A stretch of 21,704 bases of DNA from a virus. Lineage: Duplodnaviria; Heunggongvirae; Uroviricota; Caudoviricetes; Drexlerviridae. Both the position numbers and the translations under genes were made by a program. Shown here one piece after another: positions 16,820 through 17,447 of the stretch (within the stretch, counting starts at the first letter, position 1; the number at the start of each line of letters is the position of its first letter). Under the pieces are notes generated by a model. It had not been told where the DNA came from and searched no databases. It was given only the letters and a program-made list of their open reading frames with translations. The stretch lies in the IMG/VR virus record IMGVR_UViG_2534682080_000005; one strand, written 5' to 3'.

Positions 16820-16852
16820 AACTCCTACATTGATCTTCCCTCACAACAATAA

Positions 16853-16872
16853 TACTGTATGTTTGTGCAGTA
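16853..16872 (+). promoter_or_regulatory. Putative LexA (SOS) box overlapping a candidate promoter for the downstream UmuD'-like module
   Basis: TACTGTATGTTTGTGCAGTA matches the E. coli LexA consensus TACTGTATATATATACAGTA at 16 of 20 positions, with intact CTG-N10-CAG and flanking TA; it sits inside a perfect 10-bp inverted repeat AATAATACTG / CAGTATTATT. Candidate -35 TTGATC (16830-16835) and -10 TACTGT (16854-16859), 18-nt spacer. Confidence 0.6.
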
Positions 16873-16890
16873 TTATTGGGAGGGCAGATC

Positions 16891-17130
16891 ATGCTTCGAC
16901 AGTCAGACATCGCAGCGGCGTTCCGCGAGTCGGTATTGCGCAGTTCCAAGGGGTTCCAGTACCTTCACACCCGCGACTTCGTTACCGCGCTGCGCCGGCG
17001 CGGCATCCATTTTTCCGAGGTGGAGGCGAACTCCTGGATCGCACGCGAGCAAACGTATTTCGTCGACAAAACGGCAGAGCATAGTGAAAACTGCCTGTGG
17101 ATGATGGCCAACATGGGGAGGATTCTGTAA
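16891..17130 (+). CDS. Hypothetical small protein (79 aa), first gene of the putatively SOS-regulated module
   Basis: ATG at 16891 preceded by GGGAGGG (16878-16884); stop overlaps the start of the next gene (TAATG at 17128-17132), suggesting translational coupling. No motif recognised; a resemblance to ImpC-type small proteins is speculation. Confidence 0.5.
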   Translation: MLRQSDIAAAFRESVLRSSKGFQYLHTRDFVTALRRRGIHFSEVEANSWIAREQTYFVDKTAEHSENCLWMMANMGRIL

Positions 17131-17447
17131 TGGGCTTTCCATCACCGGCGACGGACTACACGGAACAGCGATTAACGGTTAACTCGATCTGCAGTGTTGG
17201 GCCAAATACGCGCCTCTTCGAGCGTTCAGGCGGTTACGTTGTGCTGGATATCTCCCTGAAGCCATCACAAGGTAGTCAGGTTCTGATCCAGCACGGCGGC
17301 GGGACGGAGCTTGCCACGCTGAGAGGAAAGTCGCTGATTACCGAAGATGGCGAAGCGATCGAGGGCGAGGCCTTGGACGATGTTAATGTCATCGGCGTCG
17401 TGACGTTTACTATCTGCGATGTGCGCCAGGACAATGCGGTTGTTTAG
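17130..17447 (+). CDS. UmuD'-like protein (LexA/UmuD S24 peptidase-fold family, beginning at the position of the UmuD autocleavage site)
   Basis: ATG at 17130 preceded by GGGAGG (17115-17120); product starts MGFPSPATDYTEQRLTVN..., matching the start of processed E. coli UmuD' (GFPSPAADYVEQRIDLN...). The region aligned to the UmuD Ser nucleophile motif (SGDSM) reads RSGGYV. No umuC-like gene follows. Confidence 0.65.
   Translation: MGFPSPATDYTEQRLTVNSICSVGPNTRLFERSGGYVVLDISLKPSQGSQVLIQHGGGTELATLRGKSLITEDGEAIEGEALDDVNVIGVVTFTICDVRQDNAVV

Follow-up and report, generated by a model that had tools for sequence, protein, structure and literature searches.

How does a prophage come to carry, just behind a tail fibre gene, a UmuD'-like gene that appears to answer to the host SOS repressor LexA, and what might the product of such a gene do with no polymerase gene beside it? 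This question is raised by a stretch of 21,704 nucleotides, IMG/VR virus record IMGVR_UViG_2534682080_000005 (Caudoviricetes; Drexlerviridae), which in its entire length is called here the window. A first-pass annotation, made from the letters alone, had placed an SOS-controlled module of two genes at positions 16830-17447; these coordinates proved correct, 16830 being the first base of the -35 hexamer. This module is referred to below as the cassette, and its two genes as gene 1 and gene 2. The regulation of the cassette and the identity of gene 2 are secure in silico. The most likely role of the gene 2 product, to which we give a rough probability of 0.45, would be that of a damage-induced, ready-made accessory subunit of DNA polymerase V (Pol V), engaging the UmuC of the host or of a plasmid through its N-terminal arm. 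The elements of the cassette are the following:

16830-16835, plus strand: -35 element TTGATC, also the left edge of the mobile cassette
16853-16858, plus strand: probable -10 element TACTGT, 17 nucleotides after the -35 element and identical to the first six bases of the LexA box
16853-16872, plus strand: LexA operator TACTGTATGTTTGTGCAGTA, matching the consensus at 16 of 20 positions
16878-16884, plus strand: Shine-Dalgarno sequence GGGAGGG of gene 1, 6 nucleotides before the ATG at 16891; GGAGGG is kept in homologues
16891-17130, plus strand: gene 1, coding for an orphan winged-helix protein of 79 residues (PHROG 3893, function unknown)
17115-17121, plus strand: Shine-Dalgarno sequence GGGGAGG of gene 2, within the last codons of gene 1 (..M-G-R..)
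17130-17447, plus strand: gene 2, coding for a pre-processed mini-UmuD' of 105 residues that lacks the catalytic dyad (PHROG 3469, 'UmuD-like')
17448-17510, plus strand: conserved 3' flank travelling with the cassette; this stretch of about 60 nucleotides adjoins gene 2 in many Klebsiella prophages too

The operator TACTGTATGTTTGTGCAGTA begins 33 bases past the stop of the fibre open reading frame (16819) and differs from the LexA consensus TACTGTATATATATACAGTA at four positions, with CTG-N10-CAG intact, just as the first-pass annotation had described it. Scored with a weight matrix trained on known E. coli SOS boxes, it reached 18.6 bits and was the top site of the window, the runner-up scoring 9.9; the training boxes themselves scored 13.5-27.9 bits, and the maximum of 200 shuffles (17.35) stayed below it. 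About 90 related loci were gathered from phage records, IMG/VR and E. coli genomes, and conservation of the operator was counted over the 79 that have an intact gene 1 start. CTG-N10-CAG was found at the same offset, about -38 from the gene 1 ATG, in 69 of these 79 loci (59 distinct upstream sequences). Across the 59 contexts the box arms TACTGT..ACAGT were nearly invariant and the spacer varied, the variants among related loci including ATATAAAAA, ATGCATGAC and ATGTTTGTG. The box and TTGATC were also present in Erwinia and Pantoea phages, whose proteins are only about 37-45% identical.

The overlap of this operator with a candidate promoter after the fibre stop, which had likewise been pointed out, was borne out by the same comparison. 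The -35 hexamer was TTGATC in 46 and TTGAC[GC] in 7 of the 59 upstream contexts, and TACTGT, which keeps T1, A2 and T6 of TATAAT, stood at a fixed spacing in 55 of them. Similarity between loci started exactly at the TTGA hexamer, with zero sequence information upstream of it. We infer that the promoter is TTGATC-17-TACTGT, with TACTGT as the probable -10; a strict consensus promoter scanner missed it because this -10 matches TATAAT at only three of six positions. Since the putative -10 coincides with the operator's first six bases, bound LexA would occlude the promoter, and the cassette would be under LexA (SOS) control in vivo.

Ten of the 79 loci were without the box, and in nine of these an unrelated junction took its place. 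At L012, L013, L035, L045, L046, L069, L072 and L081, promoter and box were swapped for a GC-rich junction (about 60 nucleotides upstream of gene 1) that stops just short of the ribosome-binding site, and at L063 the right half of the LexA box alone remains. Box-less copies such as L012, L013 and L035 would escape LexA control. Several database gene calls fuse gene 1 with resolvase/invertase fragments (PF00239, PF02796).

Sequence searches placed gene 2 in the UmuD family. UmuD/UmuD' were its sole significant matches among PDB sequences (E about 1e-4; next E 3.9), its membership of PHROG 3469 was clear (E 1.9e-46), and its best NCBIfam model was HumD of phage P1 (42.3 bits, E 6.4e-11). HumD, with which the first-pass annotation had compared it, was thus the right comparison; the C-terminal tail DDCPVI is common to sister alleles of gene 2, HumD and phiKO2 gp23. 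Residues 2-44 of the gene 2 product align to UmuD 25-67, that is, to UmuD' 1-43, and its MGFPSP start lines up both with G25-F26-P27 of UmuD and with the first residue in the crystal chain of UmuD'. Gene 2 therefore starts where processed UmuD' begins, as had been proposed, its residue 2 corresponding to UmuD Gly25.

The catalytic dyad was followed in an alignment of the gene 2 family with UmuD, P1 HumD and phiKO2 gp23, for which the UmuD sequence used was verified at C24/G25, S60 and K97. The loss of peptidase activity that had been predicted agrees with this alignment, in which both Ser60 and Lys97 are absent. The way in which the loss had been explained, by RSGGYV standing in for SGDSM, did not hold: in the short family a 12-residue deletion spans the catalytic Ser loop, and the Lys97 position is occupied by Leu. 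On this alignment, the gene 2 product is rightly called a dead protease. The dyad is dispensable for UmuD' function after cleavage.

What gene 2 has kept is, above all, the N-terminal arm. Its residues 2-18 match UmuD 25-41 at 13 of 17 positions, and among 40 family members, which are never cleaved, G2, F3, S5, P6, D9 and Y10 were invariant and P4, A7, E12 and R14 nearly so. The acidic loop ITxDGEAIEGEALDD, the beta-barrel core and the C-terminal strand are retained as well, and the fold predicted for the protein is the LexA/UmuD' C-terminal beta fold. The subfamily can thus be regarded as a natural minimal UmuD', in which arm, core and acidic loop are what has been kept without cleavage. No Y-family polymerase (umuC-type) gene was found among the open reading frames of the window, the long ones being all head, tail, fibre or Ea47-like genes, which agrees with the earlier statement that a umuC partner is missing.

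The product of gene 1 gave no match in Pfam, NCBIfam, PADLOC or PDB sequences, and its family is narrow, amounting to 65 clusters (50% identity) in a set of 1.84 billion representatives. Its model was a confident winged helix of predicted H-S-H-H-S-S topology, and several of the winged-helix proteins that it matched in fold mediate protein-protein contacts; a fold search in BFVD matched only an orthologue. Its identity with the LexA N-terminal domain was rejected, as no LexA_DNA_bind hit was obtained and LexA lay outside the 60 best fold matches. DinI, ImpC and Lxr were likewise rejected for want of any Pfam or profile signal: a DinI Pfam search of 30 gene 1 family members at E up to 5 gave no match, and a gene 1 profile found no relative among the open reading frames of P1 (including Lxr), phiKO2 and 186. 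Comparison of the profile with 186 Tum by hhalign returned a probability of 0.3%. A conserved C-terminal tail was considered as a docking strand and dropped, because its Gly-Arg/Gly-Gly codons make up the Shine-Dalgarno sequence of gene 2, which is the simpler explanation; GGAGG is also present in the C-terminal codons of gene 1 in distant alleles. A GC-rich 8-bp hairpin with a T-run at 16985-17003, inside gene 1, was picked up as resembling a terminator; as the P18-100 allele has lost the T-run, the hairpin is probably there by chance.

The stop of gene 1 and the start of gene 2 overlap in TAATG (TAA at 17128-17130, ATG at 17130-17132), and with the Shine-Dalgarno sequence of gene 2 lying within gene 1 the translational coupling that had been claimed for the pair is well founded. 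Both genes are real and under purifying selection, with a pairwise ratio of nonsynonymous to synonymous substitution rates of 0.13 for gene 1 (65 distinct alleles) and 0.10 for gene 2 (61 distinct alleles). They were found together in 84 of 90 collected sequences, and the overlapping pair persists at 29-47% identity in mEp390, vB_EcoS-733R5, Midgardsormr38 and AH07. Rare decay forms were also detected: L048, in which gene 2 stands alone with the LexA box directly before it, a truncated gene 1, and P18-100 with gene 1 alone. The alleles of the two genes do not travel in fixed pairs, as shown by the identities to gene 1 and gene 2 of the window at L077 (50% and 90%, respectively) and L007 (87% and 60%). 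In vB_EcoS-733R5 (L008:2450-4444), a retron-type reverse transcriptase gene is followed by a broken second copy of gene 1 and a DNA-invertase fragment, and about 1 kb further along comes a gene 1/gene 2 pair that is intact and divergent.

Copies of the cassette were found in prophages from Klebsiella, Escherichia, Enterobacter, Erwinia and Pantoea. It matched 146 of 5426 complete E. coli genomes, 36 of which hold at least 80% of it, and it was present in at least 381 IMG/VR stretches and in many Klebsiella phages. It usually follows the last gene for tail or fibre, ahead of attP/int, or stands at the prophage extremity, and both the neighbouring genes and the immunity regions differ between the phages that carry it, the latter being unrelated. 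Fourteen IMG/VR prophage predictions (L010-L089 loci) stop exactly at the gene 2 stop codon and others within about 270 nucleotides of it, and the conserved 3' flank is often within 270 nucleotides of the predicted end of Klebsiella prophages; in many of these the cassette may abut attR. The GC content of the cassette carries no foreign signature. With its own putative promoter, its sharp left boundary at the -35 element, its variable neighbours and its late-gene/att location, the cassette is, judged by these comparisons, an autonomous accessory unit, or moron.

For the role that we favour, that of a ready-made Pol V subunit, the following course of events can be proposed. In the lysogen, host LexA sitting on the operator that overlaps the -10 would keep the cassette off. 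Once DNA damage removes LexA, a short mRNA would be made and its two overlapping genes translated together. The gene 2 product would be born in the already-cleaved UmuD' form, and its arm would engage a UmuC-type polymerase supplied by the host chromosome or by a plasmid. The slow, RecA-dependent maturation of UmuD would in this way be bypassed, and lesion bypass would be available, or reprogrammed, when the damaged prophage begins replicating. The winged-helix protein of gene 1 would work with the gene 2 product as a partner or as a DNA-targeting factor. As to possible sources of UmuC, umuDC is carried on the E. coli chromosome, and at least 3022 of the best 5000 plasmid matches to UmuD were on Klebsiella plasmids. 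There is also a precedent in HumD, for which a role in substituting for UmuD' has reportedly been shown experimentally in P1. That gene 2 still targets a UmuC-type polymerase is suggested by the arm being better conserved than any other part of this never-cleaved protein, and by AlphaFold models of Pol V in which one UmuD' arm sits beside the active site of UmuC, between its palm and its little finger (PMC11791011, PMC12926913).

Several observations weigh against this role. In the same Pol V model, UmuC's C-terminal tail docks on UmuD' residues S60, T95, K97 and E93 (PMC11791011), of which only the equivalent of E93 survives in gene 2; with S60, T95 and K97 lost, normal UmuD'2C assembly is doubtful, an inhibitory or altered complex is just as possible, and the inhibitory one becomes a serious rival. 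The Pol V explanation gives gene 1 no defined role, and the freedom with which alleles of the two genes recombine speaks against a complex of their products that would be specific to alleles. The relation to the known activator is also a distant one, since the HumD score of 42 bits falls far short of the 120-bit cut-off, and a Pfam scan of gene 2 gave no Peptidase_S24 match. Its structure model is of moderate confidence only, with a predicted local distance difference test score of 68.5. No terminator-like site was found after 17447, and the segment 17440-17535 folds no better than shuffles (z 0.24). Lastly, no paper on the subfamily was found in the searchable literature by topic, accession or PHROG id.

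The inhibitory complex just mentioned would make the cassette a brake on Pol V: the mini-UmuD' would occupy UmuC, or heterodimerise with host UmuD/UmuD' through its arm and dimer core, to give a dead complex with no cleft for the UmuC tail, and error-prone synthesis on the phage genome would be lowered during induction. The retention of the arm, the core and the C-terminal strand together with the loss of the predicted docking residues S60, T95 and K97 fits such a brake, as does the fact that HumD, a known activator, keeps the Ser and Lys that the gene 2 subfamily does not. We nevertheless hold it to be unlikely, because UmuD' activity needs no catalysis, so that loss of the dyad does not by itself imply loss of function, and because the docking site of the UmuC tail comes from a model and not from a solved structure. 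Somewhat unlikely, too, is a phage-specific, damage-induced complex of the gene 1 product with the mini-UmuD' that would not stand in for UmuD' at all, acting either as an adaptor that redirects or silences host or plasmid UmuC on phage DNA via the arm or as a two-piece, uncleavable LexA-like factor. The two-piece version taken by itself, in which winged-helix DNA binding and mini-UmuD' dimerisation would add up to a non-covalent, uncleavable LexA/CI-like regulator, made only after damage and controlling phage or host genes, is very unlikely. The winged helix of gene 1 is of the same fold class as the N-terminal domain of LexA, gene 2 shows the C-terminal fold of LexA/CI and starts exactly at the cleavage-site glycine, and the two genes are almost always adjacent and overlapping; on the other hand, the 60 best fold matches of gene 1 did not include LexA and LexA_DNA_bind gave no signal, the two genes reassort their alleles freely, a search for a candidate operator came up empty, and the strongest conservation of gene 2 lies in a UmuD'-type arm that a repressor linker would not need.

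Besides Pol V, the first-pass annotation had named RecA as a possible target, and modulation of either one seems plausible. As a decoy, an uncleavable UmuD-like dimer in the groove of the activated RecA filament would compete with LexA, UmuD or phage CI and, like DinI, adjust how far, or when, the SOS response and induction proceed. This we consider quite unlikely. DinI-like SOS genes do adjoin the cassette or its relatives in mEp390, phiKO2 and P18-100, but UmuD' is a poorer binder of RecA filaments than UmuD. Among the RecA-contact residues seen by cryo-electron microscopy, F26, P29, F94 (L/F) and E93 (E/D) have equivalents in gene 2, whereas conservation fails at Y52, V54 and D91, and the protein lacks the N-terminal 24 residues, to which the contact F18 belongs (PMC9926225). 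The least likely of the explanations is a LexA-controlled antirepressor of the Tum, GfoA or AntC type that would trigger prophage induction. A LexA box before a small protein of roughly the right size recalls such systems, which are established in Gifsy phages, 186 and N15 (PMC3121763). However, no similarity to Tum was detected, and the resident repressors carry S24 self-cleavage domains: that of the closest complete prophage combines a helix-turn-helix with Peptidase_S24 (E 6e-19) and should cleave itself, and that of mEp390 is annotated as LexA family (218 residues). The movement of the cassette among phages with unrelated immunity regions also speaks against an antirepressor.

In enterobacteria, damage-induced mutations arise mainly through Pol V, and the slowness with which UmuD cleavage activates this polymerase serves as a safety delay. 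A ready-made, uncleavable UmuD' look-alike, delivered as soon as LexA falls, could shorten this delay or block it, with possible effects on mutation supply, on prophage survival after induction and perhaps on the evolution of resistance. This would be most relevant where lysogens of Klebsiella and E. coli meet quinolones and other drugs that induce SOS. The phage-specific complex, if true, would represent a previously undescribed rewiring of the late SOS response by a prophage.

Other SOS-related genes were observed near the cassette or in the phages that carry it. DinI-like genes are located near the cassette or its relatives in P18-100 (L091:3070-3378), where the gene may have a LexA-like box of its own, in mEp390 (L004:3409-3675) and in phiKO2 (L002:2681-2923), a pattern suggestive of a small island of SOS genes where the prophage ends. 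Near attR, the closest complete E. coli prophage carries a DinI-like gene with a frameshift (L001:24196-24443). Cassette phages also encode a protein of about 107 residues just upstream of rusA, as in the NZ_CP026939.2 prophage (L005:15786-16109) and in mEp390 (gp43, L096:6267-6587). The former is essentially the LexA DNA-binding domain alone (PF01726, E 3e-19), without a cleavage domain, and the latter is annotated only as a transcriptional repressor. Such a phage-made, uncleavable LexA look-alike could re-repress SOS boxes, that of the cassette included, during lytic growth.

The window itself corresponds to the late region of an E. coli prophage of lambda type, whose close relatives are located at the tRNA-Pro/yejM site. 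The description of the cassette as embedded in the tail-fibre region was correct only for this window, where it reflects a local accident; elsewhere the cassette occupies the accessory slot before att/int. It looks fibre-embedded here because a segment that contains it has replaced the middle of a lambda-type side-tail-fibre gene (stf), leaving an stf remnant and tfa downstream:

13361-16819, plus strand: side-tail-fibre open reading frame with phage_tail_N and C-terminal GDSL/SGNH esterase domains
13739-17624, plus strand: replacement segment swapped into the lambda-type stf, comprising the distal side tail fibre with its SGNH/GDSL esterase domain and the cassette
17625-17804, plus strand: remnant of the old stf C-terminus, whose RefSeq equivalent is labelled 'incomplete; missing N-terminus'
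17804-18388, plus strand: tfa, directly after the stf remnant

The closely related prophage of strain C21 has an intact stf-tfa-ea47 arrangement and no cassette, and the window aligned to it only at 1-13738 and 17625-20191. The fibre of 13361-16819 is a mosaic of a lambda-type N-terminal domain and a different distal part ending in the GDSL/SGNH esterase, possibly a deacetylase that acts on a polysaccharide receptor at the cell surface. Downstream of the swapped segment, the stf C-terminus (17625-17804) and tfa are left stranded; Phage_fiber repeat and Caudo_TAP domain matches were obtained in this region (17625-18388). Behind tfa lies an AT-rich gene on the minus strand (18615-19775; 386 residues; GC about 0.31), the product of which gave no Pfam or PADLOC match and whose C21 counterpart is labelled 'Ea47 family protein' in one record. 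Over 1-13738 and 17625-20191 the window also differs from the 98%-identical C21 prophage by 21 single-base indels (for example at 5256, 5276, 7519, 7842 and 11874), which break the tape-measure gene (4169-5290 / 5484-6728) as well as gene J (9131-11926 / 11884-12627) and which reflect either a decaying prophage or assembly errors. Both cassette genes are intact.

Among known systems, P1 humD is like the cassette in that it encodes a UmuD' homologue without the N-terminal 24 residues, starting MGFPSPAADY, with umuC absent and with a LexA site annotated in the P1 record between lxr and humD. HumD complements UmuD' according to a note in that record, and McLenigan et al. are said to have found the same in 1999. 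Unlike the gene 2 product, HumD (NCBIfam NF051876; about 30% identity) has 129 residues and keeps the Ser and Lys positions; P1 is without a gene 1 homologue, and Lxr, the SOS neighbour of HumD, is divergent and unrelated to gene 1. In phiKO2, the orphan UmuD'-like gp23 comes right after a J-like tail gene with an annotated LexA site and promoters, the site falling between dinI and the UmuD-like gene; N15 gp26 is annotated as UmuD-like, and several HK and mEp phages carry such genes. The phiKO2 and N15 proteins differ from gene 2 in being of the long HumD type and encoded by single genes with no winged-helix gene upstream. Compared with E. coli UmuD/UmuD', the Pol V accessory subunit (PDB 1UMU, 8GMT), gene 2 is without the cleavable N-terminus, Ser60 and Lys97; it is about 10 residues shorter than UmuD', it has no adjacent umuC, and a winged-helix gene is its partner. 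The LexA box before small proteins outside the immunity region is shared with 186 tum, Gifsy dinI-gfoA-irsA and N15 antC, which have no sequence relation to the cassette and no UmuD'-like component; the Gifsy operon dinI-antirepressor-irsA, moreover, sits near replication genes and not in the tail region (PMC3121763).

True orthologues exist as well. The 'UmuD-like protein' gp26 of mEp390 is one of them (51% identity to gene 2), with a LexA box and a position between tail fibre and attP/int, and an unannotated gene 1 homologue precedes it (L004:3762-3998, 47% identity). The PHROG 3469/3893 pairs of Klebsiella, Enterobacter, Erwinia and Pantoea phages show no difference in kind, and the orthologues bear no annotation beyond hypothetical, UmuD-like, 'repressor CI' or 'DNA polymerase V'. 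The arrangement had been called unusual. In its general form it is not, because the records of P1, phiKO2 and N15 annotate orphan UmuD'-like genes, with LexA sites in P1 and phiKO2, and the cassette itself is common; LexA-controlled orphan UmuD' genes in temperate phages are already established. What is new with respect to the searchable literature is the shortened, dyad-less subfamily, its near-constant pairing with a winged-helix gene, and the sharply bounded, autonomous unit of promoter, operator and two genes in which both are carried.

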